This document shows, one piece after another, positions 10,781 to 60,780 of a stretch of DNA of 64,000 nt. How positions within the stretch are numbered: the stretch's first letter is position 1; every line of letters starts with the position of its first letter. Origin of the DNA: Escherichia phage fEgEco12. Location of the stretch: sequence record PP777464.1; one strand, 5' to 3'. A model generated the notes under the pieces. That model had not been told where the DNA came from and made no database searches. It worked only from the letters and a program-made list of their open reading frames with translations. The position numbers and the translations under genes are program-made.

Positions 10781-10934
10781 AGAACATGATATAATTGTAG
10801 ATGTAGAAAAGAAGGAAGTTGTTATGAAGAAGCAAGCATACCGCATCTTAGACAACTTCTATCTTAAGGCATTTATAATGAAGTTCTGTGCAGACGAGCA
10901 CTTAACAGGACGTGTTATACGCAAGGAGTCGTAG

Positions 10935-20143: not shown

Positions 20144-20145
20144 AA

Positions 20146-42397: not shown

Positions 42398-43522
42398 TTA
42401 ATTATCTAAGCCACCAATTACACTGAACTGTGTGGTAACGTCTGAACTATTATCTATGTAAGTTCTTCTACCAACATAATATAGTTGTCCTTTTGCTTGA
42501 ATAAAAGTTACGGTCCCTGTATTGAATGTTATAATATCATTGTATGTAATGTCAGGTGGTAGTGCTGCTGATAACGCAGTAACTTTACTTAATGCAGCAC
42601 TAGTACTACCATTTATACCAGCAGCAATACTACCAGTACCATAGAACTTATTATCTTTACCAATGAATACGTTGGCTGATGCTTGTGTAGCTGATGTTAT
42701 TGCCTTACCAATTTGGAATGCGGTTCCTATGGTGTATGGTGTGCTCCTGGCTGCGTCTATGCTTTGTGTATATCCATCCCCTAGCTGACCATTAACTTTG
42801 TCACCACATGAGTATAGAGTACCATTGAGGCTGTATATGATCCCACGGTTAGAGAAGCTAACAGCTTCTGCATTAGTCCATACTGGTGCGGTGTATGAGT
42901 TTACACGACTAGCGGTAGTTCCTAGACCTAGTATACCATATGTGTTATCACCACATCCAAACCATTGTCCAGAACTGTTTTGATAGAACACTGAACGTTC
43001 TGTTGATTCCATGCGTACAGCATCCACAGCACCACTTTTAACGAACGAAGTTGATGAGGATGTAGTACCAGTACCCAATGCACCATAAGTGTTTGTACCA
43101 ATCGCATAGATTGATCCTAGTGGTGTCATAACACGTATGCAGTTATATCCCAATTGAACTTTACATTCAAATAGGTTGTCCCATATTTCAGGAACAGCAG
43201 AAAATAAATTTGTAATTTCGAACCATGATGTTGTCGAATCAGTTAATCCAATACTGCTTTTGTTTCCTAAAATGAAAACAGTTTTGTCCTTCTTAATTAT
43301 CCATGATGATAGGAAACCTATCTCACAGCTATGAACATTTGATTCTATTTGGGTAATATAATACTTAACTGTGTTATCACCCATGAATGCCGCAGCACCG
43401 GATGCAAAAAGGTTTCCAGTTTGTTTATTTAAAATGTAGTTATTGTTTCCATATACACTAACATCATAAGAACTTTCTTGTTTTTCGTTCCCATAATCAA
43501 ATAACAATACGAAAGGTAACAT
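42398..43522 (-). CDS. cassette protein 15 (last in array): RCC1-like repeat beta-propeller, variant N-terminus MLPFVLLFDYGN
   Basis: GTNTYGALGTG, GDNTYGILGLG, GDKVNGQLGDG repeats. Confidence 0.75.
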   Translation of the reverse strand: MLPFVLLFDYGNEKQESSYDVSVYGNNNYILNKQTGNLFASGAAAFMGDNTVKYYITQIESNVHSCEIGFLSSWIIKKDKTVFILGNKSSIGLTDSTTSWFEITNLFSAVPEIWDNLFECKVQLGYNCIRVMTPLGSIYAIGTNTYGALGTGTTSSSTSFVKSGAVDAVRMESTERSVFYQNSSGQWFGCGDNTYGILGLGTTASRVNSYTAPVWTNAEAVSFSNRGIIYSLNGTLYSCGDKVNGQLGDGYTQSIDAARSTPYTIGTAFQIGKAITSATQASANVFIGKDNKFYGTGSIAAGINGSTSAALSKVTALSAALPPDITYNDIITFNTGTVTFIQAKGQLYYVGRRTYIDNSSDVTTQFSVIGGLDN

Positions 43523-43599
43523 GATAAAATCTCCTTGTGTTATACTTTATTTAATCATTTTATAATGTACAATTTTACAGCGATTTAATTGAGGTACTC

Positions 43600-44250
43600 A
43601 TGAATAAAAGAAGTAAGTTCTATCAAGAATATTTCACTAAACAGAAACGATTCACAAAAAAATACTTTACATCATCCCACCGACCAGTTGCAAGTTACAA
43701 ACGTCCTAATACTAACTATCTTACTGGTGGCAAGTTTAGTGCAAAGTTCGAATTACTTATGCGTGAAAAGAATATCAAGATGCATTACGCAGAGACGAGA
43801 AAAAACTCATCAATTATTTGTTCTGATTTTCTTGAGTACGGTTGTTTAACTTATAAATTCAACGATGTATATTTGTATATTGATGTTGATTGTAACAGTA
43901 CTCGTATGTTTGAGATTTCAATTCACCCAAATCACAACCGTTATATAAACATTAACTTGGTTGATAAAGTACTGATTGGTATATCTAGTACTGATGGTGG
44001 TGGATTTGAATTTATTGCTTCAAAATATGATGAGGACTTTGTACTGTTCCCAGTACTTGATGATGTGAAAGATATTCTCAATTCATTAAAAGGAAGTCAA
44101 TACAAATTATCTGAAGAACAGCTATTTCAGTACTCACTTATTCATGATGATATCGAGATATACTTAGAGTGTGCGAGAATATTGGAGTATCTTTATAATG
44201 AACTAACAACAACTGGTAAAGTGACAGCATTCACATTATATAATATGTAA
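43600..44250 (+). CDS. hypothetical protein, FQYS motif family, embedded on opposite strand inside the cassette array
   Basis: 216 aa; LFQYSLIHDD motif. Confidence 0.6.
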   Translation: MNKRSKFYQEYFTKQKRFTKKYFTSSHRPVASYKRPNTNYLTGGKFSAKFELLMREKNIKMHYAETRKNSSIICSDFLEYGCLTYKFNDVYLYIDVDCNSTRMFEISIHPNHNRYININLVDKVLIGISSTDGGGFEFIASKYDEDFVLFPVLDDVKDILNSLKGSQYKLSEEQLFQYSLIHDDIEIYLECARILEYLYNELTTTGKVTAFTLYNM

Positions 44251-44257
44251 AAGAAAA

Positions 44258-44276
44258 GCCAGTACATAGTACTGGC
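44258..44276. terminator. GCCAGTAC...TACTGGC hairpin
   Basis: GCCAGTAC-ATAG-TACTGGC. Confidence 0.6.
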
Positions 44277-44282
44277 ATTATA

Positions 44283-45419
44283 TTAAACTGGTGGAGAATT
44301 ATATGGCTCAAATTTATAAGTTGTCGTAGCAGTACCAGCAATGGCGTTGTTAGCTAGTATGTACATAGTCCTGTAGTCGATTACCACTACAGTAATACTA
44401 CCACCAAAAGCATAGTCTGTTATGTTATTAGTGTTGAATGGTAAATTAGATGAACTGGTCCATGTATTAGCTGTTGTGCTATTTGTACCATTGGAATAAC
44501 CTACACTAGATGCACCAGTTGTCCATAAGTTTCCATCATTGAACAAGGAGACATGGTTAGTTGTATATGATTTATTAGGTATAGAACTATCAATTGGTGT
44601 ATTCCAAACTTTAGTAACCCATGTTGTAACTGCTGTATTATTAGTAACGCCATTACCTAATGAACCATTTATTGGTATACCTCTTATATAAGAAGTGTTA
44701 GTACTAGGGTCAACATATCCAAATGTATATGTATCAAATGCAAATTGAAAACAATCAGAACTCGGTAATGTGTACAGTAATGTATATGAAGACGTGTTTA
44801 TTGATGAATTTGTACCGTTCACGCCTTGGTATAAAATACCACTAGCCAATATTTGATTATTATTTTTTGTTATAGTGTTCATTGATGGATATGTTTTCAC
44901 ATCACGCACATCATTAGTCACATATGTTTGTGTTGATAATGCAACGTTACTACCATTACCTATAACCCCTGTATTTGCACCACTCCCATAAAGTGAACCA
45001 TCATTCAAAAGAACCATTGTAACATTACCATTTCCCGTAATTGTTTTAATATTACTAACATCCACCGCAGCAAATACAGTTGATGTTAAATCAGTGAAAC
45101 GTGTATAATGTGATGTTGTGCCATTGATTGGTGTCGCAAAACCAGAATACAAAATTCTATTTTCTTTGGTAATAAGGAATGTGCCAGTAACACCATTTGA
45201 ATGGATATCAACAATATTATCGCCCATTAATACCCAATCACTTACGAATGTTGTTGTACCAGTACCCAACCCATATGTCGTATTGTATCCACGTCCATAC
45301 ACTCTACCATCACTGAGTAATGTTACCACACATTGACCACCACCACCAAGGATAACTTTTTGGATAGTACTCTTTACTTTTATATTCCCGTACTTAACCA
45401 TTCTTGCAAAAGGTAACAT
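44283..45419 (-). CDS. cassette protein 14: RCC1-like beta-propeller, N-terminus MLPFARMVKYGN
   Basis: 378 aa; RGYNTTYGLGTG; no hairpin between it and cassette 13. Confidence 0.75.
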   Translation of the reverse strand: MLPFARMVKYGNIKVKSTIQKVILGGGGQCVVTLLSDGRVYGRGYNTTYGLGTGTTTFVSDWVLMGDNIVDIHSNGVTGTFLITKENRILYSGFATPINGTTSHYTRFTDLTSTVFAAVDVSNIKTITGNGNVTMVLLNDGSLYGSGANTGVIGNGSNVALSTQTYVTNDVRDVKTYPSMNTITKNNNQILASGILYQGVNGTNSSINTSSYTLLYTLPSSDCFQFAFDTYTFGYVDPSTNTSYIRGIPINGSLGNGVTNNTAVTTWVTKVWNTPIDSSIPNKSYTTNHVSLFNDGNLWTTGASSVGYSNGTNSTTANTWTSSSNLPFNTNNITDYAFGGSITVVVIDYRTMYILANNAIAGTATTTYKFEPYNSPPV

Positions 45420-45433
45420 TCTTTTTCTCCTTG

Positions 45434-46582
45434 TTATATTGATGGCATATCCAACACATATGAGTTGCTAGTGATTGATGAATATGTAGAATTTAAACCT
45501 GTACTATAAACATAATCACCTGCCCATAAGAATGTTCTATCCAATGTTGTATGTATTTCAATATCATCATATGATGATAATGATATTTGTGCCAGTGTAT
45601 ATGTAGTAGCATCAATGTTTGAACCAATACCCAAAGTACCATTGTATTGTGATTGGGAGTTTTGACCAGTTGCATATATACCAGATTTGGTTATTAAATG
45701 CTGATTGTACATTGACGTACCTTTAAACAATTTAATTAAATTAGAGTTGGGTGTTGTTATTTGTGCAGGAGCAAGTATTGTTGTTGTAGTGCCACCATCA
45801 CCCAATTGACCATATCGTTGGTAACCACCAGCGTATACCTGTTTAACTCCAGCAGTAGTTTCTATAATAAAGAATGAACCATAGCCAGTAGTATTAAAGT
45901 CTATTATTTTATTTGTACTCAAACCAACATTATATCTAGTAAATGTTGTTGCATTTGCTGAACCACCAGCATTCCCACCGACCATTTGACCACTATAATA
46001 AAATGCACCAGTACTGTCAGTATAAGCCATACAGTTTTCACTACCATATATTTTCACTGGTGTACTGGGGAAACTAGAGGTTATATTCACACATGTATTA
46101 TATTTTGCAGTAGTTCCAGTAATTTCACCATTGTTGTTTTGACCAATGACCCAAACTGTGTCATCTGAACGTATAGCCATTGAGCTATAAAACGAGGATA
46201 CAAATTGTTTAATAAAGGAACCAGGGAGAGAAGTAAGCATACTATTGATTTGTGCACTCACATTGGTCCATGTATTCACAACTGAATTGACACCTGCTGC
46301 TGCACCGGAACCAGAACTCCACCATGATTCATCATTCTTTTTAATCAATGTACCGTTAGCAGAGCAATAAACATCAGCAACTGAACTATTAACTAATATC
46401 CATTCCCTCGCTGCTGTTGTATTACCAGTACCTAGCTGTCCTGCTGCATTACTACCCTTAGCATATAAATCGCCATTCTGCGTTAAAAGCATAGTATGTT
46501 GGTATCCAGTTGACAATTTCTTTATTTTTGGTAATGCTGGTGCTTCATTTCCATAATCAAACATTCTAACAAAAGGTAACAT
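45434..46582 (-). CDS. cassette protein 13: RCC1-like beta-propeller, N-terminus MLPFVRMFDYGN
   Basis: 382 aa; GSNAAGQLGTGN, YGQLGDGGTT. Confidence 0.8.
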   Translation of the reverse strand: MLPFVRMFDYGNEAPALPKIKKLSTGYQHTMLLTQNGDLYAKGSNAAGQLGTGNTTAAREWILVNSSVADVYCSANGTLIKKNDESWWSSGSGAAAGVNSVVNTWTNVSAQINSMLTSLPGSFIKQFVSSFYSSMAIRSDDTVWVIGQNNNGEITGTTAKYNTCVNITSSFPSTPVKIYGSENCMAYTDSTGAFYYSGQMVGGNAGGSANATTFTRYNVGLSTNKIIDFNTTGYGSFFIIETTAGVKQVYAGGYQRYGQLGDGGTTTTILAPAQITTPNSNLIKLFKGTSMYNQHLITKSGIYATGQNSQSQYNGTLGIGSNIDATTYTLAQISLSSYDDIEIHTTLDRTFLWAGDYVYSTGLNSTYSSITSNSYVLDMPSI

Positions 46583-46659
46583 AATTCCCTCCTTTATTCA
46601 TTATACTATATTTAATCAAAAAGAAAAGCCAGCACTCTGTACTGGCATAGTATTAAGGT

Positions 46660-47790
46660 TTAAATATTTTTATAATTAATTTCTACATAGTTACGTTGTG
46701 TTCCAGTATATCCTGGAACATTACCTATATTTCCATTACCTGCACCAAACAGACGTTCTCCGACTGCAAAATATGTCCCATAGAAACAACCATCAAACAC
46801 AGGAACATCATTATAATTTGATATGTAATTATCCATAGAATCCATTCTAGTGTATACTGTCAGAGCTACATTCGTACCCATACCATATGCACCATACGGG
46901 TTAGTACCAGCAACATAATACCCAGTGGGTGTACATATTACTGGTGAATTTGCCCCTGATCTCGTGTGGATAAATCTAAATGTACCTTCAGGTACTGGTG
47001 CTTCTTTACTGAATAATGTTGTAGCTACTACTGGGTAATCAATACCATAACTATTACCACTCAACCACGTTTTACCATCACTATCTTTGAATAATGAACA
47101 GGATTGTGTGCATCCGAACAGATTCAAATTGGTTACATTTGGAAATTTACTAATTTGTGTATATACCAGAACTGTGGTTGCGGCAGCACTACCAAGTTGT
47201 CCACGACCATTATCACCCGCACTGTACATGTACCCATCGGTCTTTAATATTATACTAGCGTTTCCTAAAATATCAAAATCAACAACATCCGTTTGTGTTA
47301 ATGTAGCTATAGGATAACGAAAATTCACTGCCTCACCAGTACCAAATTGACAATTGGTGTTTGCCCCACATCCATATAAGTTGCCGTTTTGCATTAATAT
47401 AAACAAACCTGTTGTCATTTTAATTTTCTTAATATTAAGAATATCTATATCTTGGAATATGTGTGTTACATTTACAAATGTGGTTGAGTTAACAGCACTT
47501 GAACCATAATAAGAACCGTTCCCGCTGCCAAAGAATTCATCGCCTTTTCTGTACATTGCACATAGACTACCACCCCATACATCATCAACCCCAGTGTCAA
47601 TTTGAATAACAGAAGTAACACTAGTTGTTGTACCAGTGCCAAGTTCACCACCTGAATTGTATCCAAAACCATACAAATCCCCACTTTCTGTTAGCACCAA
47701 AACACTGTTATTGGTTGTGCATGAAATCTTTTTGATATTATTAGATGGTCTTTTATTTCCGTACTTAACCATTCTTGCAAAAGGTAACAT
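46660..47790 (-). CDS. cassette protein 12: RCC1-like beta-propeller, N-terminus MLPFARMVKYGN
   Basis: 376 aa; GYNSGGELGTG, GDNGRGQLGSA. Confidence 0.8.
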   Translation of the reverse strand: MLPFARMVKYGNKRPSNNIKKISCTTNNSVLVLTESGDLYGFGYNSGGELGTGTTTSVTSVIQIDTGVDDVWGGSLCAMYRKGDEFFGSGNGSYYGSSAVNSTTFVNVTHIFQDIDILNIKKIKMTTGLFILMQNGNLYGCGANTNCQFGTGEAVNFRYPIATLTQTDVVDFDILGNASIILKTDGYMYSAGDNGRGQLGSAAATTVLVYTQISKFPNVTNLNLFGCTQSCSLFKDSDGKTWLSGNSYGIDYPVVATTLFSKEAPVPEGTFRFIHTRSGANSPVICTPTGYYVAGTNPYGAYGMGTNVALTVYTRMDSMDNYISNYNDVPVFDGCFYGTYFAVGERLFGAGNGNIGNVPGYTGTQRNYVEINYKNI

Positions 47791-47835
47791 ATTTCCCTCC
47801 TTTATTCATTATACTATATTTAATACAAAAAGAAA

Positions 47836-47856
47836 TGCCAGTATCAAGTACTGGCA
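47836..47856 (-). terminator. inter-cassette hairpin TGCCAGTA-TCAAG-TACTGGCA plus T-run on minus strand
   Basis: same hairpin at 49835, 51099, 59557. Confidence 0.65.
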
Positions 47857-47869
47857 TAGTTTTATAGTA

Positions 47870-48979
47870 TCATTTCGGCATTGTAATTGCAGACCATGAG
47901 TTCGTGGTAATAGGACCTGGCACATACAAAAAAGAACCACAAGCATAAATTTGATTATTACCATCAAATACTATACTAAAATGTGCACATGTGTATAATG
48001 CTGATTTTTCTGGGTTGTAATTATCTAAAGTTAGTGTATTGGTGAATCTACTCAAACCACCACCAGAACCATTTCTACCAAATTCACCAGTACTATATAT
48101 CTTTCCTTCGGTTGTTGCGTACATATTAACATATGAAGTTGCACTTGATTTTGATATTTTATGTATCTTACTATCAATAGTAGTGGAGTTAAATGCAAAT
48201 GGATATACTTGTGTGTTCGTTGTAATACCGTTACCAAGTTGACCAACATACTGCCAACCTGCGTTGTATATATTGCTGGCTGAATAAGCAAGAGTACCAG
48301 TACTGTTACCACCAAACAGTTTAACACTGGTTAACCTGCTTACTAGTGTAGTATACTGTCCTGGACTTACGCCAAGTGAACCATACCCACTACTCCCACA
48401 ACCGAGAAGTTCACCATTTGATGTTAATATTAATGTGTTATTCTGTGTACCCAATATATCAAGGACTGTATTAGCTCCGGTATTAATAACTGAAACAAAA
48501 GTACTCTGAGCCGTGGAATACCCAGCACCGAGTGAATAGTTACCATTCATGCCTCTACCATAAACAATCGAACCACTAGCATCAACGTAGTGCATTGTAT
48601 CTACACCAATTGATATCATTTTAATATTAGATATATGTGGAAATGAAGAAGTAACATTCAAACCACCCAACTGAATCGTAGTATTTCCTGTGCCTAATTG
48701 TGTGGTAACTCCATGCATTATGAATTCTTCACCCTTGAGATAAAGAATATTGTACGCCCCAGCCCATGCATCAGTAACACCTTCTGAAATTAATATCCAA
48801 GTATTTCTTGTTGCTGTATTTTCAACGTTTAACTGAAAATAAGTATTAACCCCACAACCATAAAGTGAGCCATCGCCATAGAGGACGTACAAATTATCAA
48901 GACCGCACAGTACTTTCTTTATCTTTGGATCTTCAGGTGCAATATTCCCGTAATCAAACATTCTAACAAAAGGTAACAT
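47870..48979 (-). CDS. cassette protein 11: RCC1-like beta-propeller, N-terminus MLPFVRMFDYGN
   Basis: start at MLPF ATG 48979 after GGAGG; track upstream extension discounted; close paralog of cassette 2. Confidence 0.8.
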   Translation of the reverse strand: MLPFVRMFDYGNIAPEDPKIKKVLCGLDNLYVLYGDGSLYGCGVNTYFQLNVENTATRNTWILISEGVTDAWAGAYNILYLKGEEFIMHGVTTQLGTGNTTIQLGGLNVTSSFPHISNIKMISIGVDTMHYVDASGSIVYGRGMNGNYSLGAGYSTAQSTFVSVINTGANTVLDILGTQNNTLILTSNGELLGCGSSGYGSLGVSPGQYTTLVSRLTSVKLFGGNSTGTLAYSASNIYNAGWQYVGQLGNGITTNTQVYPFAFNSTTIDSKIHKISKSSATSYVNMYATTEGKIYSTGEFGRNGSGGGLSRFTNTLTLDNYNPEKSALYTCAHFSIVFDGNNQIYACGSFLYVPGPITTNSWSAITMPK

Positions 48980-49051
48980 ATTTCCTCCTTTATTCATTAT
49001 ACTATATTTAATACAAAAAGAAAAGCCAGTACTCAAGTACTGGCCTATATT

Positions 49052-49789
49052 TTAGACTGAATTGTTAGGATAATATCTCCCACGTCCCCATATTATTCGC
49101 ACAGCACCACCACCAGCAGCAGTATAAGAAGAATTATCCCATATACTACCACCACCACCATACCTCTTACCAGCACCACCACTACCAGCACCACCATTAT
49201 ATGAACCACCGTAGCTACCACCAATACCATTAGCACCTTGAACAATGATACCAGTACCACCACCCGTACCAATGAACGAGGTACTATAGAATGTACCACC
49301 CCCACCGCCGCCGCCAGCACCATTTTCACCAGTGATTGCATCTCCGTTACCACCTTTACCAGTGTAGCCACCAGCACCACCACCAATGACTGCACCACCA
49401 CTTACACCAGTGTTGCCACCATTACCACCACCATCATTAATAGCGTTAGCAGCTTTTCCACCTAGTCCACCAACCGTATATGCACCAGTGAAGCTAACAC
49501 ATAGTTTTTCAGTTCCACGGTATAAACCGTTTTCAACTGCTGTAGTAGTGTTGGAATGTGTAAGAGAAACACTTAAGTACTCACCACCAGAAACTGGAAT
49601 ATTATTACGCCACGATAAGCCGCCACCAGCACCACGTTGACCACCCGGTGAAATAACACATACTGATATTTCGGTAACGCCAGCAGGAACTGTAAATTGT
49701 GTTGTTCCTATTGCCGTGATTAATTGTTCACCATGTGGCTTATATTCAATTTTATTCCCGTACTTAACCATTCTTGCAAAAGGTAACAT
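49052..49789 (-). CDS. cassette protein 10: glycine-rich protein with the same N-terminal module (MLPFARMVKYGN)
   Basis: 245 aa; irregular GGxGG runs, no collagen GXY periodicity. Confidence 0.75.
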   Translation of the reverse strand: MLPFARMVKYGNKIEYKPHGEQLITAIGTTQFTVPAGVTEISVCVISPGGQRGAGGGLSWRNNIPVSGGEYLSVSLTHSNTTTAVENGLYRGTEKLCVSFTGAYTVGGLGGKAANAINDGGGNGGNTGVSGGAVIGGGAGGYTGKGGNGDAITGENGAGGGGGGGTFYSTSFIGTGGGTGIIVQGANGIGGSYGGSYNGGAGSGGAGKRYGGGGSIWDNSSYTAAGGGAVRIIWGRGRYYPNNSV

Positions 49790-49861
49790 AATTCCCTCCT
49801 TTATTCATTATACTATATTTAATACAAATAATAATGCCAGTATCAAGTACTGGCATTATTA

Positions 49862-51052
49862 TTACAATTGTCTAGGTGTATCCAGAACATATCTATTTGT
49901 TTTAGGACCACCATCATCATAAGTTCCGGTTGAATATATATTTTTCATATCAGCAGTCAGGAAAGTACGCAACGAACCGCGATATATTTTTATTTTATCA
50001 TACATAGAATATGTTATTTCTGACGGCAATGGACATGCAGTAAATTTACCAATGGTAGCATCATAACCAACACCCAATGTGCCAGCATAACTACTCGCAT
50101 TTAAACCAGTTGCATATACACCTGTACTCGTAACTAGTATACTAGATTGTGCTGGGTATCCAGTATGGATTGAATAATAAGTACCGGGTGGTAATGTAGC
50201 ACTATTATTTCCTAAAACTCCATTAACAGTGCTAGATGTAGTTTTATTTCCCCATGCTCCATTATTAGCTAATCCACCAACTAGAAACTGACGTGCTCCT
50301 GTATTTGGATTCTCCACTAAAGCACTGACAGCACCAAATGAACAAACAGTATATTGTAATGTTTTTGTATATGTGGTACTTGGCTTATACAAAGTATATT
50401 CATTAAATGGTGTCCATGTGGTACTAGTACTTATGCCAGATGTACTACCACCAATATATAAATTATTTTGTGTATCATAAAACATTACACAGCTATTTGT
50501 TGACTGTATTCGTGCAATATCAACATTAGGCGTGACAGCTTTTACAAATGAACCATCTGATATTTGATAAGTAGTTCCTGTACCATCTGCGAATTGTCTA
50601 GCACTATTCCACCCTGTACTCCATATTGTATTATTATCCATTAAGAAAGTAAACCACGTAGTACCTGCATACATCTGTTTAATTGAAGTACTTGAACTTT
50701 GTGTGTACAAATTTTCAATATATTGGTTATAACTTAAAAATGATGTAGTACTAGTTTCTAAACCAATATGACTACCATATCCACAATAAAAATAATTTAA
50801 GTCCTTATCTTGAACTAACAAAGTTCCTTGTGTCATCCAGCAATCTTTGACATTTTCTCTAATTAATGTCCACGACCTTACTGCATTATTATTTCCTCTA
50901 CCAAACTTCCCATAACTATTACTACCTCGTGCGTATAGTTGACCGTCGGTATAAAGTACAACAACCTCAGTATCAGTTGGTATTATTTTCTTAATTTGAA
51001 GAGGTTCAGGTGTGATATTCCCATAATCAAACATTCTAACAAAAGGTAACAT
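49862..51052 (-). CDS. cassette protein 9: RCC1-like beta-propeller, N-terminus MLPFVRMFDYGN
   Basis: 396 aa; RGSNSYGKFGRG. Confidence 0.8.
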   Translation of the reverse strand: MLPFVRMFDYGNITPEPLQIKKIIPTDTEVVVLYTDGQLYARGSNSYGKFGRGNNNAVRSWTLIRENVKDCWMTQGTLLVQDKDLNYFYCGYGSHIGLETSTTSFLSYNQYIENLYTQSSSTSIKQMYAGTTWFTFLMDNNTIWSTGWNSARQFADGTGTTYQISDGSFVKAVTPNVDIARIQSTNSCVMFYDTQNNLYIGGSTSGISTSTTWTPFNEYTLYKPSTTYTKTLQYTVCSFGAVSALVENPNTGARQFLVGGLANNGAWGNKTTSSTVNGVLGNNSATLPPGTYYSIHTGYPAQSSILVTSTGVYATGLNASSYAGTLGVGYDATIGKFTACPLPSEITYSMYDKIKIYRGSLRTFLTADMKNIYSTGTYDDGGPKTNRYVLDTPRQL

Positions 51053-51123
51053 AATTCCCTCCTTTATTCATTATACTATATTTAATCAAAAAAGAAAAGC
51101 CAGTATCAAGTACTGGCGTAATG

Positions 51124-52266
51124 TCAATAAGTATCCCAAGGTAATGGTGTCTTCCTAAATCCATACCTGGTTGTGCTCGCACCATCACCAGCAATGTATC
51201 TACCTATACCACATTGGTATAACTCTGTACTACTACATATAGCACCACCAATAGTACCACTACTCCACTGAATTATATTAGAATATGTTATTGGTAAATC
51301 ACTACATTTAGTATATATTCCAACAGTAGCACCACCACTAATACCACCAAACATACTTCGGTTAGCACCAGTGTAATATATACCATCTGGACTCATAAAT
51401 GCAGAGGTGTAAGTTGTACTGCAATCCACTGGACTTCTTATTGTATTAAGATCGCCTGGGTATGTCCTGACACCAAAGGTGTATACATTACCATCAGTTG
51501 TAATACCATTACCTAACTGCCCACTGTTTTGTCCACCACATGTAAGCAACAATGCAGAACCAGAAACAATTGCAGTAGCATTATACGAAGTACCCATTGC
51601 AATAGAAGCACCAGACAATAGTTTTGGAGTAACAATAGCTGTTGTATTACCCTGGCCTAATTCACCATTGATATTTCGTCCCCATGCGTATATAGAAGTC
51701 GTGTCCAATCGACATAGTACTGAACCATAACTAAACGTATATCGCATGTCAATTACCGCATTAGGCAAATTAACCTTAGTTGCAACACTAATAACACCAC
51801 CAGTAACACCACTGTTTGCGTTCATGTTACGACCATATGCATATAAAGAACCATCTGAAGTTTTAATATGCATCATACCATCTGTACAATATAATGCATC
51901 TATACTCTCCACCGCAACCGGACCCATACTGGTAGTTATATCGGTCCACCCAAGAGAGGTAGTACTAGAAATTAAGTTATTTCCGGCGTATAGTATTCTA
52001 TTATTATTAGTAACTACAACTGTATATCTGGTAGTAACACCAATTAATCGAACATCAGTATATATCTTAGACCACGCACCTAATGAATTGGTGTTTGCAT
52101 CCAAAAAGCCCAACTGCCCATCTGTATTGTATCCAATACCCCATACATCACCTGCACTGTCCAATAACACTTCATGTGAAAATCCAATCTTAAAATCTTT
52201 TATTGTAGGAACTACCGGAACTGGTGCAATATTCCCGTACTTAACCATTCTAGCAAAAGGTAACAT
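51124..52266 (-). CDS. cassette protein 8: RCC1-like beta-propeller, N-terminus MLPFARMVKYGN
   Basis: 380 aa; GYNTDGQLGF, GQNSGQLGNG, GRNINGELGQG. Confidence 0.8.
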   Translation of the reverse strand: MLPFARMVKYGNIAPVPVVPTIKDFKIGFSHEVLLDSAGDVWGIGYNTDGQLGFLDANTNSLGAWSKIYTDVRLIGVTTRYTVVVTNNNRILYAGNNLISSTTSLGWTDITTSMGPVAVESIDALYCTDGMMHIKTSDGSLYAYGRNMNANSGVTGGVISVATKVNLPNAVIDMRYTFSYGSVLCRLDTTSIYAWGRNINGELGQGNTTAIVTPKLLSGASIAMGTSYNATAIVSGSALLLTCGGQNSGQLGNGITTDGNVYTFGVRTYPGDLNTIRSPVDCSTTYTSAFMSPDGIYYTGANRSMFGGISGGATVGIYTKCSDLPITYSNIIQWSSGTIGGAICSSTELYQCGIGRYIAGDGASTTRYGFRKTPLPWDTY

Positions 52267-52340
52267 AATTCCCTCCTTTATTCATTATACTATATTTAAT
52301 ACAAATAAGAATGCCAGTACTCTGTACTGGCATTTTAATT

Positions 52341-53495
52341 TTAACTCGGTGTAACTATTTTTTTAAATAATCCTGTATTTCCGGCATTTTCTTCTTCATA
52401 CGGAATTGTACCCATACCAGCAGTTCTACTACCATTCCCTGAACCATATAATTCACCGTTTTTTAACATGAATGTTATCATATAACCATGTGTCATTTTA
52501 TCATATGGAACTGGTTCAGTTATATTAGTACATGCACGCCATGTTTTAATAACATTAGAGTTCGTTATTCCATCTCCAGAAGCGTTTCCACGCCCAGCGA
52601 AATACCATATACCACCTGCTCTAACGTGTGCTTCATAATTAGAACCACCTATGTAATCAATCGCAGTACTAGGAATACTAGAAGCTGGTATCTTTGTGAT
52701 TGTTCTAAGACTGTTAATAGTGCCATCAGTGCCATCACCCAACTGTCCATCTATTTGTGAACCGAATACATATAGCCCATCACTCTTTAATACGTAATTA
52801 GCACTATATGCATTTTCTGAATTTATCTGTAATACTCCAGTAGTAACAGTAGTCAATGTGGTAGTTGTACTAGTCGTACCAGTCGAACCAATACTAGATT
52901 TATTCCCACTGTACTTTAATGTCCCATCATTGTATAATACAAATGAAGCATTATTCGCGGTTACACCAATATCTTTAACATCAACTTCAGGTGTCAATGT
53001 CAGTACTGATACTCTTTGTCCAACAGCCCCAGTAAAAACTTCACCGTTGTTATTGTCACCCATCTTATATAATTTATTATCTATTGTTAATAATAATGTA
53101 ACGCCGTTTCCTATAACTATTTTACTATATGTGTCATTCACATTATTAAAAATACCAAGTATTTCTGTCCATACACGATAAGTAGTATTAACACCACGAT
53201 AGATTTGAGTACCAGTACTCCACCATGTGCCATCATTTTTACGTACTAATATTCCTTGTGTATCACCAGTAGTCCAAAATTCCTTTACATCAGTTAAACA
53301 TAAAACCCACTCTTCAACTATAGTAGGAGAACTACTACCAGTACCTAATTGATAGTAAAAATTATGCCCTCTGCCATATAATCTTCCGTCTTCTAATAAA
53401 ATAAACACATTATTCTGTAAAACTTTTACCATCTTTATACCAACTGGCACAGGTGCTTCATTCCCATAATCAAACATTCTAACAAAAGGTAACAT
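52341..53495 (-). CDS. cassette protein 7: RCC1-like beta-propeller, N-terminus MLPFVRMFDYGN
   Basis: 384 aa; GHNFYYQLGTG, GSQIDGQLGDG. Confidence 0.8.
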   Translation of the reverse strand: MLPFVRMFDYGNEAPVPVGIKMVKVLQNNVFILLEDGRLYGRGHNFYYQLGTGSSSPTIVEEWVLCLTDVKEFWTTGDTQGILVRKNDGTWWSTGTQIYRGVNTTYRVWTEILGIFNNVNDTYSKIVIGNGVTLLLTIDNKLYKMGDNNNGEVFTGAVGQRVSVLTLTPEVDVKDIGVTANNASFVLYNDGTLKYSGNKSSIGSTGTTSTTTTLTTVTTGVLQINSENAYSANYVLKSDGLYVFGSQIDGQLGDGTDGTINSLRTITKIPASSIPSTAIDYIGGSNYEAHVRAGGIWYFAGRGNASGDGITNSNVIKTWRACTNITEPVPYDKMTHGYMITFMLKNGELYGSGNGSRTAGMGTIPYEEENAGNTGLFKKIVTPS

Positions 53496-53565
53496 ATTTC
53501 CCTCCTTTATTCATTATACTATATTTAATCAAAAAGAATGCCAGTACTTGAGTACTGGCATTATG

Positions 53566-54675
53566 TTATTTTGGTAAATCAATTTTAGCAAAGACTGCAA
53601 CATCTGCACTTGCACCTGGAATGGCGTAATACGATCCAGTACTATATACATTCCCGTCTTTGGTTAATAATGATGTTAATCCGTCACTAAAAGCAACATC
53701 ACTAATCTCACTAACTTCTACAGGTAATTGTAAATTAGCAGCACTATAGATAGCACCCGTTTGAGAATTGTTTAATCCCAAACCACGGTTTCCCCCAATA
53801 CCTTTCTGATATGCACTAGTTAATATAATTTGCGTAGCCGTGCTTGTTGCCTCTGAATTTGTCATAAACAAAGGTGAATTATTAGGTAAAGTACTTACAG
53901 GAACTGCTTTGAATGTAGTTGAATCTGAACTAAGAAAGTTTGGAGTTGTACCACATGTGAAATATGATGTACCATTATAGTAATTGAGTGTATGTCCACC
54001 AATAGCTGCATCTATTACACCAGAACTACGCAGTCCCCAAATGTTAACTTGTGTTCTGTTCCCTGTGCCATGTAATCCACGGTCATTCCACCCTGAACTA
54101 TATAACTTATTATCTATGCTAATATACATACTATCATTAGGAGTAGACATAACTTTACGCACATTAGAAGCACATAGTGTTAATGTATATATTGATGAAG
54201 AACCAATCCCCAATACACCACGGTATCCATTAGCCCCAGCACCATAGAGTACTGAACTTGAACTGAGTACAAATATTACACCACCATTGCATACAATATT
54301 AGCAATTTGATTCACAGGAATTGTATTTGTAAACCACTCCGTTCTATCAACTAATGTAGTACTGTAAGAAGTTGTTGTTGATGATGTGAACCAATATGTT
54401 TCACCTGATGTCCATATCGTATTGTCATTTTTAATAATAACAAGTGTTCGTCCTCCAGTGAAAAAATTAGAAACATCTGCACTTACTAATGTCCAAGAAG
54501 ATACCGTGTTTTTATTACCATTTCCAGATTCACCACCTTGATTTCTGCCTATGTAATATAATTCATGTGAATCAGTCAATACGAATTGACCTTGTGTAGA
54601 AGCACCAACTTTTATTATATTTTTAGGACCAGGTGTAATATTCCCATAATCAAATAGTCTTACAAAAGGTAACAT
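53566..54675 (-). CDS. cassette protein 6: RCC1-like beta-propeller, N-terminus MLPFVRLFDYGN
   Basis: start at MLPF ATG 54675; GRNQGGESGNG. Confidence 0.8.
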   Translation of the reverse strand: MLPFVRLFDYGNITPGPKNIIKVGASTQGQFVLTDSHELYYIGRNQGGESGNGNKNTVSSWTLVSADVSNFFTGGRTLVIIKNDNTIWTSGETYWFTSSTTTSYSTTLVDRTEWFTNTIPVNQIANIVCNGGVIFVLSSSSVLYGAGANGYRGVLGIGSSSIYTLTLCASNVRKVMSTPNDSMYISIDNKLYSSGWNDRGLHGTGNRTQVNIWGLRSSGVIDAAIGGHTLNYYNGTSYFTCGTTPNFLSSDSTTFKAVPVSTLPNNSPLFMTNSEATSTATQIILTSAYQKGIGGNRGLGLNNSQTGAIYSAANLQLPVEVSEISDVAFSDGLTSLLTKDGNVYSTGSYYAIPGASADVAVFAKIDLPK

Positions 54676-54683
54676 AATTCCTC

Positions 54684-55877
54684 CTATTGTTGCCATAACT
54701 GCGTTGGCATTAATGTTAATGTTTTAATTAAGTAAGTACCATCCGGTAATTTACTACCTGAACCGTTAAAGCCCCCACATGCATATAATTTATAATCTTT
54801 AGTTATAATTATTGTTCTGGACCAGTCTTTGGATGCCATAAGAACATTGTCATATCCACCCTGTATCGCACTTAAAGAAAACGCCCCCCACGAAGTAATT
54901 ATTGTTGTATTTCCCGTCCCTTCTTGACCATATGTATTGATGCCTGCACTCCTGACATATGATGGGTATTGAGCCATAGGTGCACCAATTGTTGAGTTAC
55001 CCATATTACTAGGACACAGGAAACCATCACTAATATTCACTATAACCTGTGAATTCTGAACTGTAGTTAATTGGTTTGTAGTTGAAGTAGTACCATTCCC
55101 AGCTTGTCCAGAATTGTTTCTACCACTCCAGTACACCCTACCGGCAGTAAACCACCAGGTAACATCATAAGTAGTACTTATATAATCGACGTTGGTTCGT
55201 ATTAATTTATTAGTAAAAACGTATGAGCTAGTCCCACCACCACTTTCACCAAAGTTATCCTTACCACAAAACCATGCTTCTTTATTTGTTTTGAGATAGT
55301 GCGTACCCTGTAATGAACACGCCAATTGAGAAACTTCACCCATACCAGTAACAACTGTTAGTACTGGAATGGGATTTTGGTTACCTGTTCCACATTCGGC
55401 ATTTGCATTTTTACCACAAACAACGACTCTTCCATCGTGTAGTAATATTCTAGTACTTTCACCTATATGTACACTCTTGATTAAATTAGCGTGTATATTT
55501 ATTTTGTTAAATGCGGCAGTAACATCAGTCCATGTTCTAAAATAACCATTAACTGGAGTTGCATCTCCATAATCGGGGAATGCTACTGTATTCCCTGTGA
55601 AATATATTCTATTATCCAAGTCAATCATCAATGATCCATGAACGCCTAACCAAAAGGCTGCACAGTGCGTTGCCAGTACTGTAAAAGTTGAAACTGCCGA
55701 TTGATTCCCTAGACCTAATTGGCTCAAGTTATTACCACCATAACCGTATAGTGTATTCGTGGGCTTATGTAGATACATAGCATTAGTATAATGTTGCTGT
55801 AAAACATCAGTGAACTCAACTGGTTCAGGAATAGGCAGTTTATTCCCGTACTTAACCATTCTTGCAAAAGGTAACAT
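54684..55877 (-). CDS. cassette protein 5: RCC1-like beta-propeller, N-terminus MLPFARMVKYGN
   Basis: start at MLPF ATG 55877; YGGNNLSQLGLG. Confidence 0.8.
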   Translation of the reverse strand: MLPFARMVKYGNKLPIPEPVEFTDVLQQHYTNAMYLHKPTNTLYGYGGNNLSQLGLGNQSAVSTFTVLATHCAAFWLGVHGSLMIDLDNRIYFTGNTVAFPDYGDATPVNGYFRTWTDVTAAFNKINIHANLIKSVHIGESTRILLHDGRVVVCGKNANAECGTGNQNPIPVLTVVTGMGEVSQLACSLQGTHYLKTNKEAWFCGKDNFGESGGGTSSYVFTNKLIRTNVDYISTTYDVTWWFTAGRVYWSGRNNSGQAGNGTTSTTNQLTTVQNSQVIVNISDGFLCPSNMGNSTIGAPMAQYPSYVRSAGINTYGQEGTGNTTIITSWGAFSLSAIQGGYDNVLMASKDWSRTIIITKDYKLYACGGFNGSGSKLPDGTYLIKTLTLMPTQLWQQ

Positions 55878-55952
55878 AACTAAAATCTCCATATAATAAT
55901 TATAATGTATTTACAAAAAAATACCAGTACGTATTTCAGTACTGGTATAATG

Positions 55953-57134
55953 TTATGGTAAAATAATAGCTTGTAACGAACTCATACCCAATGTTGGAAC
56001 ACTCGCCTGTGGTGCTGGTGCATTCACTTTTGGTGATGAAACCGCATATGTCATTCCTGAACCCAAATCTGGATCAAAAACTACAGCACAATAATTCCCA
56101 CTATATATAAGTCCATTCTTGTATCCTTGTGCACTTTGAATGCATTTCGTGAACGTCCCAATATCTGTAGTGGCATTTATTAAGTTCCTCCCACGATAAC
56201 CGCAGGTGTATATGAAATTATCATCGCCTATGTACATACTAGAATCCCCAGCAGAACTACATAGATACGACATATAAGCACGCATGTTTTTAGGAGCAAC
56301 TGACAATGTACCAGCATAGAATTTATTATTCGAACCCGAAATATCACCATCACCCAAAGCACCAAAACTCCCCCAACCAGTACCATAATATCTCTTATCA
56401 CTCAAGAATATAATACAGTTGTTATTACACATCTTGACTTGATATATCAATGAAGGATCAACCCCAGGGAATGATTCAGTGTATGTTAGAACAGCCAGAT
56501 CAGTACTAGCATTACATTGATGATATGTATTAGTACCAGAGGACAATATTGTACCATCAACTAATAGAATCCTCGAAGTGCCAGTACCAGCAGTACAAGC
56601 AACTGCACTTCCTGCACTTCCGGTGTATATTTGTCTGAAAGTAAAGAAACCAACAGTCTTACTCCCTTGTCCACTCCAACCAGTATTATCAACACCACAC
56701 GCCCATACTGAACCATCTTCCATGATCATCATTACACCATAACGTTCTATTGAAATATAAACAATCTTTTTAGTATCAACTGCACTAAATCTAGAAGTTA
56801 TATCCGTCCAAACCTTTACACTTACCGCCGTCGCACTGGAAGTAGGATCTTCACCTGCTATCATTATCCTACCATTGTTAGTCAGATACATTGTCTGACT
56901 ATAACCAGTACTACAAAACTTAACACTATCAGTCTCTGGAACTTTTAACCACTCGTTGTAACGTGTTACGTTAGTGTTATTACCTAACTGATAATAGTTA
57001 TTCATCCCAGATACATATAACACACCATCCTTTATTAAACTATAAGTCGCACTATAGTCACTACAGGTATAACGTGTACCCACAGGTGGCTCAACGACGT
57101 TCCCATAATCAAACATTCTAACAAAAGGTAACAT
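55953..57134 (-). CDS. cassette protein 4: RCC1-like beta-propeller, N-terminus MLPFVRMFDYGN
   Basis: 393 aa; GMNNYYQLGNN. Confidence 0.8.
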   Translation of the reverse strand: MLPFVRMFDYGNVVEPPVGTRYTCSDYSATYSLIKDGVLYVSGMNNYYQLGNNTNVTRYNEWLKVPETDSVKFCSTGYSQTMYLTNNGRIMIAGEDPTSSATAVSVKVWTDITSRFSAVDTKKIVYISIERYGVMMIMEDGSVWACGVDNTGWSGQGSKTVGFFTFRQIYTGSAGSAVACTAGTGTSRILLVDGTILSSGTNTYHQCNASTDLAVLTYTESFPGVDPSLIYQVKMCNNNCIIFLSDKRYYGTGWGSFGALGDGDISGSNNKFYAGTLSVAPKNMRAYMSYLCSSAGDSSMYIGDDNFIYTCGYRGRNLINATTDIGTFTKCIQSAQGYKNGLIYSGNYCAVVFDPDLGSGMTYAVSSPKVNAPAPQASVPTLGMSSLQAIILP

Positions 57135-57207
57135 AATAAAATCTCCGTAATTAAATTATATAGTATTTACAAAAAATACCAGTACATATTTCAGTACTGA
57201 CCTATTA

Positions 57208-58329
57208 TTAAAAGGGCAACGGTAACTCAGTAAAAGTACTTACGTCCGGTAAACCATACATTGAATTAGCATCACCACAGTAATACCACTTCGTAGAATC
57301 ATGTACCACCGATAAACGCTGTGCACATAACACTTCCTGTATGTCATTAAACACCATCGGGACTAACTCATATGTATCCGCAAATGAAGATACACCACCA
57401 CTCGCATGAAAAGTATTCGTCCCAGCATAAAATAACTGATTAGTGTTCTTACCCACAGCAAATGTCATCAATATCCCATCATTCTCCCATAAAGAAGAAA
57501 ACTTATCAACACTACCAGAAAGCTCTGTGTAAGTACTCGTAATGGCACTCGCAGCCGCCGCATTACCCATCTGTTTATTCAAGTTCTGTCCAGCAATAAA
57601 ATATCTCGTTCGTGCACTAGAATCAGTATATAATAACCCAGTGTTCGTAGTCATCATACCAATGTCCTTAATCGTCATACCAGTCTGTGAATAACTTAGA
57701 TACGAAGTTAAATTAACATTATTACCCAACGAACCGTTATCACTCATGCCACAACGATGTAATATACCACTTGTATCAACGTAGATTGTACTAACTAAAC
57801 TCGTATACAACTCTTGTACATTATTCGCAATAAACACAGCAGTCGCCTTATTACTAACCCCACCAAATGATAGGTTATTATCAAATCCCTTAGCGTATAA
57901 TTGATTATTAGTAGTCAATAATCCAATCGTGAAATAAGACATTTTCATATCCCTTACTGTACTCAAATCTACTGCCCCAAATTGGTGCGTAACATCTGTC
58001 CATGTGAAAATCTGTGCACTACCAACACCACCCGTTTCAAACCATTTGTCACCACAGTACAATATGCGATTACCCTTAGTAAAGATAACTGTTACCAATC
58101 CACTACCACACGCAAACTTTACATCACTTCTAACCTTCGTCCAATCAAGTACATAGGTAGTGGTGTTATTACCTATACCTAACTTGCCATAACGGTTATA
58201 ACCACGCACCCACAAATCACCACTCTTAGTAATTAATAGTAATGCGTCTCCTGTACTTATTATTCGAAATCCCGAACTAGGATCAGGTACTTCATTTCCA
58301 TAATCAAACATTCTAACAAAAGGTAACAT
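57208..58329 (-). CDS. cassette protein 3: RCC1-like beta-propeller, N-terminus MLPFVRMFDYGN
   Basis: 373 aa; GYNRYGKLGIG. Confidence 0.8.
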   Translation of the reverse strand: MLPFVRMFDYGNEVPDPSSGFRIISTGDALLLITKSGDLWVRGYNRYGKLGIGNNTTTYVLDWTKVRSDVKFACGSGLVTVIFTKGNRILYCGDKWFETGGVGSAQIFTWTDVTHQFGAVDLSTVRDMKMSYFTIGLLTTNNQLYAKGFDNNLSFGGVSNKATAVFIANNVQELYTSLVSTIYVDTSGILHRCGMSDNGSLGNNVNLTSYLSYSQTGMTIKDIGMMTTNTGLLYTDSSARTRYFIAGQNLNKQMGNAAAASAITSTYTELSGSVDKFSSLWENDGILMTFAVGKNTNQLFYAGTNTFHASGGVSSFADTYELVPMVFNDIQEVLCAQRLSVVHDSTKWYYCGDANSMYGLPDVSTFTELPLPF

Positions 58330-58401
58330 ATTTCCCTCCTTTATTCATTATAATATATTTAATACAAAAAAGAAAAGCCAGTACAGAGTACTGGCATAGT
58401 A

Positions 58402-59511
58402 TTACTTGGGTAATGGAATTGTAGTCCATCTATTAGCGGCAACGCCCCCTGGTACATATGTAGGACTACCACTTACAGCAATAGTTTCATTACCATCATA
58501 CACAACACTGAAGTTTGTGCACGTATACAACGAGGCGGTATCTGGATTGTAATTTATAAGTGTTAATGTATTGGTGAACAAATTCAATGCAGTAGTTGAC
58601 CCGTTTTTACCAAACGAACCTGTCGTATATATCTTTCCTTCTGTTGTTGAGTACATGTTAACATATGACCCAGATGATGATTTGGCAATTTTATCTATCT
58701 TGCTATCTATCGTTTTAGAGTTAAATTGAAATGGATATACCTGTACGTTAGTATCTAAACCATTTCCTAGTTCCCCATTTAACTGCCACCCTGAGTGGTA
58801 CATTCCCGAATTTGTATATGCAAGCGTACTATACCCATTACCACCCATTATTTTAGTGCCAGATAATTTTAAACCAAACGATGTCCACTTACCAGTTTCA
58901 TTTCCTATAGAACCATAAGCACTTGTCCCACATGCTCGAAGCTCACCATTCGATGTTAGAAGCACTGTATTATTAACGTTACCAAATATATCAATAACCT
59001 GATTAGTTCCATTATTCAGTACTGAAGTGAAAGTACTCTGTGAGTAAGTACTACCTGAACCAACAGAACCATTTGTGTTCATACCTCTTCCATATACAGT
59101 TGTACCATCAGCACTAACATAGTGCATTGAATCAAAACCAATGGATATCATTTTAATATTAGAGATATCTGGGAATGAAGAAGTTACATCTACTCCACCT
59201 AATGGAATTGTAGTATTTCCTAAACCTAATGAGACATTAGTTCCGTGCATTATAAATTTATCTTCTTTCAAATATAAAATATTGTATCCACCAGCCCATG
59301 CATTACTAACACCATTGGTAATTAGTACCCAATTATTTTGTGTAGCAGTTCCATCAATATTTAACTGTTGATAGTTATTGATTCCACAACCATATAGCGA
59401 ACCATCACCATATAGTACATATAAATTATCATATCCTGCTATAACTTTCTTTATTTTTTTCGGTACTGGTGCAATATTCCCGTACTTAACCATTCTTACA
59501 AAAGGTAACAT
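58402..59511 (-). CDS. cassette protein 2: RCC1-like beta-propeller, hybrid N-terminus MLPFVRMVKYGN
   Basis: start at MLPF ATG 59511; close paralog of cassette 11. Confidence 0.8.
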   Translation of the reverse strand: MLPFVRMVKYGNIAPVPKKIKKVIAGYDNLYVLYGDGSLYGCGINNYQQLNIDGTATQNNWVLITNGVSNAWAGGYNILYLKEDKFIMHGTNVSLGLGNTTIPLGGVDVTSSFPDISNIKMISIGFDSMHYVSADGTTVYGRGMNTNGSVGSGSTYSQSTFTSVLNNGTNQVIDIFGNVNNTVLLTSNGELRACGTSAYGSIGNETGKWTSFGLKLSGTKIMGGNGYSTLAYTNSGMYHSGWQLNGELGNGLDTNVQVYPFQFNSKTIDSKIDKIAKSSSGSYVNMYSTTEGKIYTTGSFGKNGSTTALNLFTNTLTLINYNPDTASLYTCTNFSVVYDGNETIAVSGSPTYVPGGVAANRWTTIPLPK

Positions 59512-59556
59512 ATTTCCTCCTTTATTCATTATACTATATTTAATACAAAAAGAAAA

Positions 59557-59575
59557 GCCAGTATCAAGTACTGGC
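59557..59575 (-). terminator. inter-cassette hairpin GCCAGTA-TCAAG-TACTGGC
   Basis: read directly. Confidence 0.65.
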
Positions 59576-59583
59576 ATATTAAA

Positions 59584-60732: not shown

Positions 60733-60780
60733 ATTTCCTCCTTTATTCATTATATCATATTTACCCCAAAAAGAAAACCC

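Follow-up and report, generated by a model that had tools for sequence, protein, structure and literature searches.

A conserved N-terminal leader on a glycine-rich protein and RCC1-like propellers of the jumbo coliphage fEgEco12: a probable uncleaved virion docking tag

In phage T4, the capsid-targeting sequence is an N-terminal tag of approximately 10 residues that is found on unrelated, fast-changing proteins (IPI, IPII, IPIII and Alt) and is sufficient for their incorporation; the internal-protein genes occupy a variable locus whose 5' region is conserved, and the proteins, which are internal, lose the tag to the prohead protease. Elsewhere, the tail of the adenovirus fibre is seated on the penton base, and the N-terminus of lambda gpD adds a strand to the capsid. 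T4-like phages also possess the promoter-early stem-loop (PeSL), a repeated terminator and promoter that flanks variable genes and is a point of homologous exchange (PMC2839356, PMC4122927). The gp38 adhesins of T2, T6 and S16-type phages are small separate proteins with an N-terminal attachment part and a specificity domain of glycine-rich motifs, which cap the fibre and set host range (PMC3157838), and the fibre of cyanophage Pam3 is docked to the baseplate by a separate N-terminal helical bundle (PMC9608196). Here, we describe a 245-amino acid glycine-rich protein of virion type, encoded at positions 49052..49789 (minus strand, stop codon included) of a 64,000-nucleotide stretch of Escherichia phage fEgEco12 (PP777464.1; hereafter the window), the first 12 residues of which (MLPFARMVKYGN, 49754..49789, minus strand) are shared with the RCC1-like propellers encoded around it. 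On balance, we favour the view that it is a small accessory virion protein with an uncleaved docking leader and an interchangeable binding head, probably located on the particle surface.

The glycine-rich gene and 14 genes for RCC1-like propellers form an array of 15 leader-tagged cassettes (42398..60750, minus strand), each of which begins MLPF..(R)....YGN, and both neighbours of the glycine-rich gene are RCC1 cassettes. The 36-nucleotide start of the gene, ATGTTACCTTTTGCAAGAATGGTTAAGTACGGGAAT (49754-49789), is present in six copies in the window at no more than one mismatch, where none is expected (100 shuffles), and agrees at 36 of 36 positions with the first nucleotides of two RCC1 genes (45419 and 55877). 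Additionally, an upstream box (TTGTATTAAATATAGTATAATGAATAAAGGAGG, 49795-49827) and a hairpin (GCCAGTAC...TACTGGC, 49830-49860) precede most cassettes, and the shared module of about 105 bp comprises a terminator hairpin, a late-type promoter, a ribosome-binding site and the 12 leader codons. Counted from the ATG, ungapped identity between the glycine-rich cassette and the others extends from about -68 to +36/+40 and then drops to 0.17-0.39, the level of unrelated sequences, and the junction of module and body is therefore placed at codon 12-13. The original prediction had described this cassette, the tenth, as the box and leader module set upon a 245-amino acid glycine-rich open reading frame (ORF); the ORF, the 36-nucleotide repeat and the recurrence of the box all agree with that description, and the boundary of module and body does coincide with the similarity breakpoint. 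Measured against the reference paralogue, the bodies of the 14 propellers show only 19-25% identity, and the leader accounts for 7 of the 12 columns that are invariant in their alignment.

Across 66 proteins the leader consensus is M1 L2 P3 F4 x R6 h7 x x Y10 G11 N12, with positions 1-4, 6, 7, 10, 11 and 12 conserved, and with scans of IMG/VR and metagenomes included, the collection of distinct tagged proteins reached 94, the bodies of which form at least 10 clusters. The tagged bodies are RCC1 or Kelch propellers and ConA-like lectin domains (RCC1, Kelch and Laminin_G_3 in Pfam), glycine-rich heads and unknown folds. The MLPFxRhxxYGN leader was seen across three genera (Asteriusvirus, Mimasvirus and Eneladusvirus), and a pattern scan of IMG/VR returned 12 stretches which, save for one chance match, all lie in contigs of 348-378 kb. 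In Pectobacterium phage CBB (Mimasvirus), CBB_144 is a 35% identical homologue of the 245-amino acid protein that starts MLPFSPLIVYGN and stands alone among nucleotide-metabolism genes; ten more CBB genes (247, 536, 537 and 548-554) start MLPFxRhxxY(G/A)N, their bodies being Kelch propellers, Laminin_G_3 (ConA-like) domains and others. Furthermore, tandem arrays of mixed content, with an MLPF start on every gene, are present in Erwinia phage pEa_SNUABM_47 (Eneladusvirus; stretch L084, 790-9930) and Xanthomonas phage XbC2 (stretch L085, 920-9192), with RCC1, Kelch and LamG genes as well as unknowns, and with two glycine-rich genes in pEa_SNUABM_47. A second leader class, MLPFPIISNTN-like and without YGN, alternates with MLPFx(R/Q)hxxYGN in these two arrays and is also found on distant glycine-rich homologues (P0004, P0016); this class may address a different site. 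Leader-tagged fusions of RCC1-like and Kelch parts, 667-690 amino acids in length, were encountered in a 355-kb uncultivated virus genome (L011, 6416-8416) and in L037 (690 amino acids).

Tagged proteins are present in the particles of four phages or phage groups with published proteomics, namely phAPEC6, GAP32, Eneladusvirus Erwinia phages and CBB. Mass spectrometry of CBB virions identified the tagged proteins 144, 247, 536, 537, 548, 549, 551, 552 and 553 (PMC5259590, Table 4), i.e. 9 of the 11 tagged proteins, compared to 55 of the 554 ORFs of this phage (hypergeometric P = 2.4e-8), and all six CBB virion proteins without a GAP32 counterpart are tagged. CBB_144, the homologue of the glycine-rich protein, was detected with 5 peptides and 34% coverage (PMC5259590). 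Similarly, eight RCC1 array proteins were found in the phAPEC6 virion (PMC7247149, Table 1), the tagged gp1 of GAP32 in its virion, and a glycine-rich 'PE-PGRS family protein' in Eneladusvirus Erwinia phages by liquid chromatography-tandem mass spectrometry (PMC7760394). The CBB virion peptide report lists tryptic peptides from within the leader, these being LLQYGNK (CBB_553), LFEYANVIIPPNYK (CBB_536) and YANVIVEYATK (CBB_548), and also IAPYQILYEMK of CBB_144, which follows directly after the leader (PMC5259590, supplement 6). As such leader-internal peptides occur in mature virions, the leader is retained and thus not cleaved in the manner of the T4 tag; the MLPFxR hexapeptide was not observed by mass spectrometry, for which it is too short to be routinely detected. 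A T4-like cleavage site, considered since CBB leaders often read h-x-E at positions 7-9, was discarded because the residue at position 9 is variable and virions contain leader peptides. Covalent isopeptide attachment through the invariant Asn12 was also deemed unlikely, the CBB proteins of approximately 24-26 kDa being found in higher-numbered gel samples (08, 09) in accordance with monomer-like migration. The module had initially been proposed to be an addressing, anchoring or expression tag. Addressing or anchoring, as opposed to expression only, is upheld by the occurrence of the same peptide on unrelated bodies and by the 9 of 11 tagged CBB proteins in the virion, and we consider it probable that the leader mediates incorporation into the particle; the expression part of the proposal holds for the DNA module (terminator, late-type promoter and ribosome-binding site) and not for the peptide itself, which is retained in the virion.

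Glycine constitutes 29% of the whole protein and 45% of residues 100-215, with a GGGGGGG run at residues 159-165. The AlphaFold2 model, based on a 69-sequence alignment, is compact (predicted local distance difference test, pLDDT, 93.4; predicted template modelling score 0.89), the pLDDT being 49 at residues 1-10 and 76 at residues 11-20, and the first strand starts from residue 20. The body (residues 20-245; 49055..49732, minus strand) is modelled as a TNF-like beta-sandwich with a lattice of extended glycine-rich loops, of the type seen in the head of Pam3 gp24, and its top structural matches are the Pam3 tail-fibre head, the tail brush protein gp33 of Bxb1 and the glycine-rich domain of ALK. 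Because the model is compact and resembles the Pam3 head, the glycine runs are taken to be part of a folded lattice and not a disordered stretch, and the earlier suggestion of a glycine-rich body of the fibre or adhesin kind is borne out by these matches. The head is thus predicted to belong to a known glycine-rich/TNF-like fibre-tip fold of phages. Scans of the protein against Pfam and NCBIfam returned nothing, even at E = 10, and a PDB sequence search was likewise silent; in PHROGs it falls in phrog_4474 (E 1.9e-66), a family without assigned function. Among the 69 sequences of the alignment, which comprise the window protein and 68 homologues, 21 match the glycine-rich domain PF21722 (Gly_rich_2) with a best E of 3.5e-11, the window protein itself having no match at E = 10; a homologue search with the protein retrieves PF21722-bearing proteins at E around 1e-15. 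Neither Pfam nor the model revealed RCC1 repeats or a propeller fold in the 245-amino acid protein, whereas its flanking neighbours have RCC1 repeats. In the AlphaFold2 model of a neighbouring RCC1 protein residues 1-14 are unstructured, and the leader, being unstructured in both models, is therefore outside either fold. The possibility that the leader is the 'velcro' strand which closes a propeller was rejected, since it is unstructured in the RCC1 model and also heads bodies other than propellers. Leader positions 2, 4, 8 and 10 are hydrophobic or aromatic, a pattern that would fit one face of a beta-strand.

Distant glycine-rich homologues in phages of approximately 150-170 kb have a different start motif, M(L/I/F)E(L/M)(L/M/I), and occur as tandem pairs beside terminase/portal genes or after a 2216-amino acid GH19 protein (L019, 8134-10744; L021, 9102-11038; L004, 7998-8840, the last being gene 19 of PVP-SE1). 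The gene at 8134-8799 of L019 starts MNEMMIV and lies three ORFs upstream of the paralogue at 10001. The motif may represent an analogous tag system in other phages.

We infer a mechanism in which the tag causes incorporation, docks to an acceptor through a beta-strand, and places a late-expressed adhesin on the outside of the particle. The gene product would consist of three parts: a free 12-residue leader (MLPFxRhxxYGN), a linker of about seven residues, and a compact TNF-like and glycine-rich head with the fold that the Pam3 tail fibre has at its receptor-recognising tip. The leader would be the clade-wide address tag of Rak2-like jumbo phages (Asteriusvirus, Mimasvirus and Eneladusvirus), such that a body carrying it would be recruited into the particle, where the tag would stay on the mature protein and dock as an added beta-strand on one conserved acceptor protein. 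The heads would probably sit on the outside of the virion, where hair-like fibres are located on capsid and tail, and the phage would thereby have a mixed set of binding heads open to quick exchange, the module providing each cassette with its own late expression and with homology for swapping, reordering and homogenising. Given that the leader mediates incorporation, an external location is likely in our view because of the kinds of body involved (a fibre-tip head, lectin-like domains and propellers), the rapid turnover of bodies between close relatives, the uncleaved state of the leader, and the hair-like fibres that 121Q, phAPEC6 and CBB bear on their capsids and tails. In a bolder form of this proposal, which we regard as conceivable rather than probable, the leader would be a universal plug that loads any acquired binding domain onto one acceptor on the hair-like capsid and tail fibres, with each particle displaying mixed, fast-evolving lectin-like heads supplied by an array that recombines at the plug, and with the two leader classes (MLPFxRhxxYGN and MLPFPIISNTN) leading to two sites. 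If true, the leader would be a ready-made 12-residue handle for the display of foreign proteins on a giant phage. A model in which the hairs are donor-strand polymers of tagged subunits was rejected, as the bodies have unrelated folds.

Several observations weigh against a surface-exposed, tag-docked protein. GAP32 has tagged virion proteins, yet has not been reported to be hairy, and the tagged proteins are globular with masses of 20-45 kDa and therefore cannot themselves be the 119-nm hairs. The authors of the phAPEC6 study proposed that the RCC1 proteins are inside and organise DNA, internal proteins can be hypervariable too, and the particle evidence for tagged proteins is mass spectrometry, which does not tell inside from outside. 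Moreover, the 245-amino acid product was outside the search database of the phAPEC6 proteomics as a consequence of a wrong-frame annotation, and a few N-terminal residues of tagged proteins may be trimmed. The ratio of non-synonymous to synonymous substitution rates is 0.3-0.7 between informative orthologue pairs of the glycine-rich gene, which shows only moderate constraint, and the timing of the promoter is read from a motif that departs from the late consensus at one position.

The main competing explanation holds that the leader is a capsid-targeting signal and that the tagged proteins reside inside the head, as part of an inner body or as ejected proteins similar to those of T4, acting in the host cell or organising DNA. 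A short N-terminal tag on unrelated, hypervariable bodies with conserved 5' DNA does resemble the T4 internal-protein locus, and virion mass spectrometry is blind to this distinction. phAPEC6 furthermore possesses an inner body, for which its authors suggested the RCC1 proteins (PMC7247149). An internal role is weakened mainly by the retained leader, three leader-internal tryptic peptides being present in mature CBB virions, and also by position 9, the place of the T4-type (L/I)xE site, which is K, D, E, Q, N or V. The bodies additionally have extracellular-type binding folds, and the RCC1 neighbour at 46660-47790 weakly matches PHROG families labelled 'tail protein'; we consider an internal location unlikely. 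It is less likely again that, instead of docking to the particle, the leader is recognised by an assembly chaperone or helps each body to fold or oligomerise. Pam3 fibre heads of the same fold do need a dedicated chaperone (PMC9608196), and an unstructured leader in monomer models is what a partner-binding segment would show. However, a single chaperone would hardly be expected to handle propellers, lectin-like domains and glycine-rich heads, the bodies fold confidently without the leader, no Tfa-like gene was noticed in the window array (for which no systematic chaperone search was made), and the near-perfect virion association fits an incorporation signal better.

Alternatively, the leader could lack a peptide function and be kept as a DNA or mRNA element (a translation-initiation region or recombination repeat) that duplication and gene conversion have spread together with the promoter. 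The near-identity of the 36 nucleotides at DNA level within the window would fit this, as would the tendency of leader variants to be homogenised per genome (residue 5 being mostly G in UE-S1 but A or V in the window) and the existence of a leaderless allele with a deletion between GGGAAT direct repeats. Conversely, the upstream DNA of the CBB leader genes is not conserved although the peptide is kept, and synonymous codons vary at Pro3 (four codons), Tyr10 and Gly11 among the 66 proteins, which argues that selection acts on the peptide. The motif also persists over three genera on bodies without detectable similarity, and the tag correlates with virion presence (at the P value given above), leaving this explanation with only a slim chance. 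The suggestion that the glycine-rich frame is an artefact, for instance a decayed or frameshifted propeller cassette, may be practically dismissed. The gene is accessory, being present in 17 of the 41 phage records that match the region and thus missing from roughly half of related genomes, one metagenomic allele is damaged, and the phAPEC6 annotators chose another frame; on the other hand, the ORF is unbroken in 17 Asteriusvirus records at 80-98% identity and has the substitution-rate ratio of 0.3-0.7 given above, the protein has 175 database homologues and a confident model (pLDDT 93), and the homologue CBB_144 was detected with five peptides. In the other frames over 49052-49789 the longest ORF is 102 amino acids and of low complexity, none being propeller-like or long, and Pfam gives no RCC1 signal for the protein itself. 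As far as sequence evidence reaches, the artefact reading, which the original prediction had named as the way it could fail, is already refuted and the frame is genuine.

Regarding the organisation of the repeated module, identity between cassettes starts at the hairpin AATAATGCCAGTACTTGATACTGGCATTATT (49830..49860, minus strand, as are all elements listed here), which terminates the RCC1 gene lying upstream and also forms the 5' boundary of the module. This is followed by a promoter-like box (ATTAAATATAGTATAAT, 49807..49823) containing the late-type motif ATTAAATA (49816-49823) and TATAAT (49807-49812), and by a Shine-Dalgarno sequence (AAAGGAGGG, 49794..49802), read from the sequence and common to the cassettes. 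Similarity of the cassette DNA ends, at the +36/+40 breakpoint, in the linker of codons 13-19 (KIEYKPH, 49733..49753), and a further terminator hairpin after the glycine-rich gene (49023..49046; found by a terminator scan as a 10-bp stem followed by a T run) forms the start of the module of the next cassette. Structural genes of phAPEC6 and of the window have (T)ATAAATA 25-40 nucleotides before the ATG, and the late consensus reported for CBB is ATAAATA (PMC5259590). The module has ATTAAATA at the position of the late motif, as does the phAPEC6 virion gene gp250c, and because ATTAAATA resembles the late consensus, late expression of each cassette from its own module appears likely. A sigma-70 early promoter, prompted by the perfect TATAAT, was dropped since no usable or convincing -35 box is present. 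Virion structural PHROG families are also matched at 12148-13305 (minus strand), 11288-12103 (plus strand) and 31615-33126 (plus strand), none of these genes having an MLPF leader, and the late-type motifs AATAAATA and TATAAATA precede the genes at 12148-13305 and 31615-33126.

The order of cassettes differs between genomes, being W8-W9-W10-W11 in the window, W8-W10-W9 in UE-S1 and W9-W10-W8 in phAPEC6, with a different order in 121Q also, and many array positions in relatives are occupied by bodies whose identity to any window cassette is only about 27%. Leader variants also differ across genomes between bodies of 96-98% identity; for example, body W3 is preceded by VRMFD in the window and by GRMVK in UE-S1. 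The module was initially claimed to be portable, in line with the differing cassette order and with the same body having different leaders, and these order changes and leader swaps indicate that it behaves as a recombination joint. Two leader subtypes coexist in the window array (MLPFARMVKYGN-like in six cassettes and MLPFVRMFDYGN-like in eight), one further cassette having MLPFVLLFDYGN, and since orthologous bodies have other subtypes elsewhere, leaders are exchanged independently of bodies. A truncated 36-amino acid cassette remnant, MLPFGRMLKYGNIKPTLPEIKKLEPQILVHNFHLLR, lies behind an intact module in metagenome contigs (L029, 7106; L047, 320) and looks like a cassette pseudogene. The array is broken between two leader cassettes by a plus-strand gene (43600-44250; 216 amino acids, phrog_34359, without assigned function), which is kept at the equivalent place in UE-S1. 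Upstream of the array, the window encodes an RNA polymerase sigma-factor-like protein (18080-19048, plus strand) and an HNH endonuclease (20055-20939, plus strand). Six tRNA genes are clustered at 2892-7140 (Ser-tga, Ser-gct, Met, Asn and two adjacent Thr-tgt).

The 245-amino acid gene corresponds to gene 243 of the Asteriusvirus phage 121Q, and the DNA around it is 92-96% identical to that of Asteriusvirus jumbo coliphages such as BF17, WPEC5, 121Q, phAPEC6 and UE-S1. Its orthologues are labelled 'hypothetical protein' everywhere, aside from the frame error in phAPEC6, where the gene occupies 9117-9869 of the analysed stretch (L002; MK817115.1) and gp004 is a 100-amino acid wrong-frame ORF, the true gene being uncalled. 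The adjacent 396-amino acid RCC1 gene (9923-11179 of this stretch) is likewise unannotated, and the pair matches window positions 49052-51052. Because both were uncalled, neither the glycine-rich nor the 396-amino acid RCC1 protein could be detected in the virion proteomics of that paper. The annotation of the glycine-rich gene is hereby corrected, replacing a wrong-frame call in phAPEC6 and 'hypothetical protein' elsewhere. In one metagenomic allele (Logan SRR12907740 contig; L082, 1238-1858) the leader and ATG are precisely deleted (compare window 49754-49802), the deletion lying between GGGAAT of the ribosome-binding site and GGGAAT at leader codons 11-12, which are direct repeats; the same allele has a 39-amino acid deletion in the glycine-rich region and may be a decaying copy or an assembly artefact.

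RCC1 arrays of the 121Q type have so far been labelled 'DNA condensation proteins' or explained as simple tandem duplication; given the shared uncleaved tag, the array can instead be seen as a set of cassettes for accessory proteins of the virion. The tag may be used to look for its acceptor, and suggests a compact display tag for engineering giant phages. No description of the MLPF leader was found in the searchable literature, the Sharanji and fEgEco12 papers adding none; the leader tag is thus not previously described there, whereas the head fold, targeting tags and PeSL-like modules are of kinds already known.

Compared with these known systems, the leader resembles the T4 capsid-targeting sequence in being a short conserved N-terminal peptide on unrelated virion proteins; it differs in that the T4 tag is cleaved, whereas the leader is found in mature virions, has no conserved Glu site and heads bodies that look like surface binders. 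The likeness to Pam3 gp24 (PDB 7YPX), and to phage proteins with the PF21722 glycine-rich domain, lies in the fold of the head. In Pam3 an N-terminal helical bundle docks the fibre and drives trimerisation; the 245-amino acid protein instead has a 12-residue leader and a seven-residue linker, and its model contains no helix before residue 111 and hence no such bundle. The 'tail wing brush' gp33 of mycobacteriophage Bxb1 (PDB 9D93) belongs to a siphovirus of an unrelated host, and we know of no leader that it shares. The gp38 adhesins of T2, T6 and S16-type phages are similar in their layout of attachment part and glycine-rich head. As in the adenovirus fibre tail and the lambda gpD N-terminus, a short segment that is flexible when free, and ordered only on the particle, would hold a larger exposed domain; each of those docking segments serves one protein family, whereas the leader is common to at least five unrelated folds within a single lineage of phages. 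It would work in the same way as the N-terminal anchors of receptor-binding proteins, being far shorter and more promiscuous. At the level of DNA, the hairpin and promoter module is repeated around variable cassettes whose order differs between genomes and, as with the PeSL, close relatives differ in which genes they hold and in what order, the junctions lying at the element. The PeSL, however, contains early promoters and ends before the coding region, whereas the promoter of the window module has a late-type motif and lacks an acceptable sigma-70 -35 box, and because the module runs 36 nucleotides into the gene, recombination at it also transfers a functional peptide.

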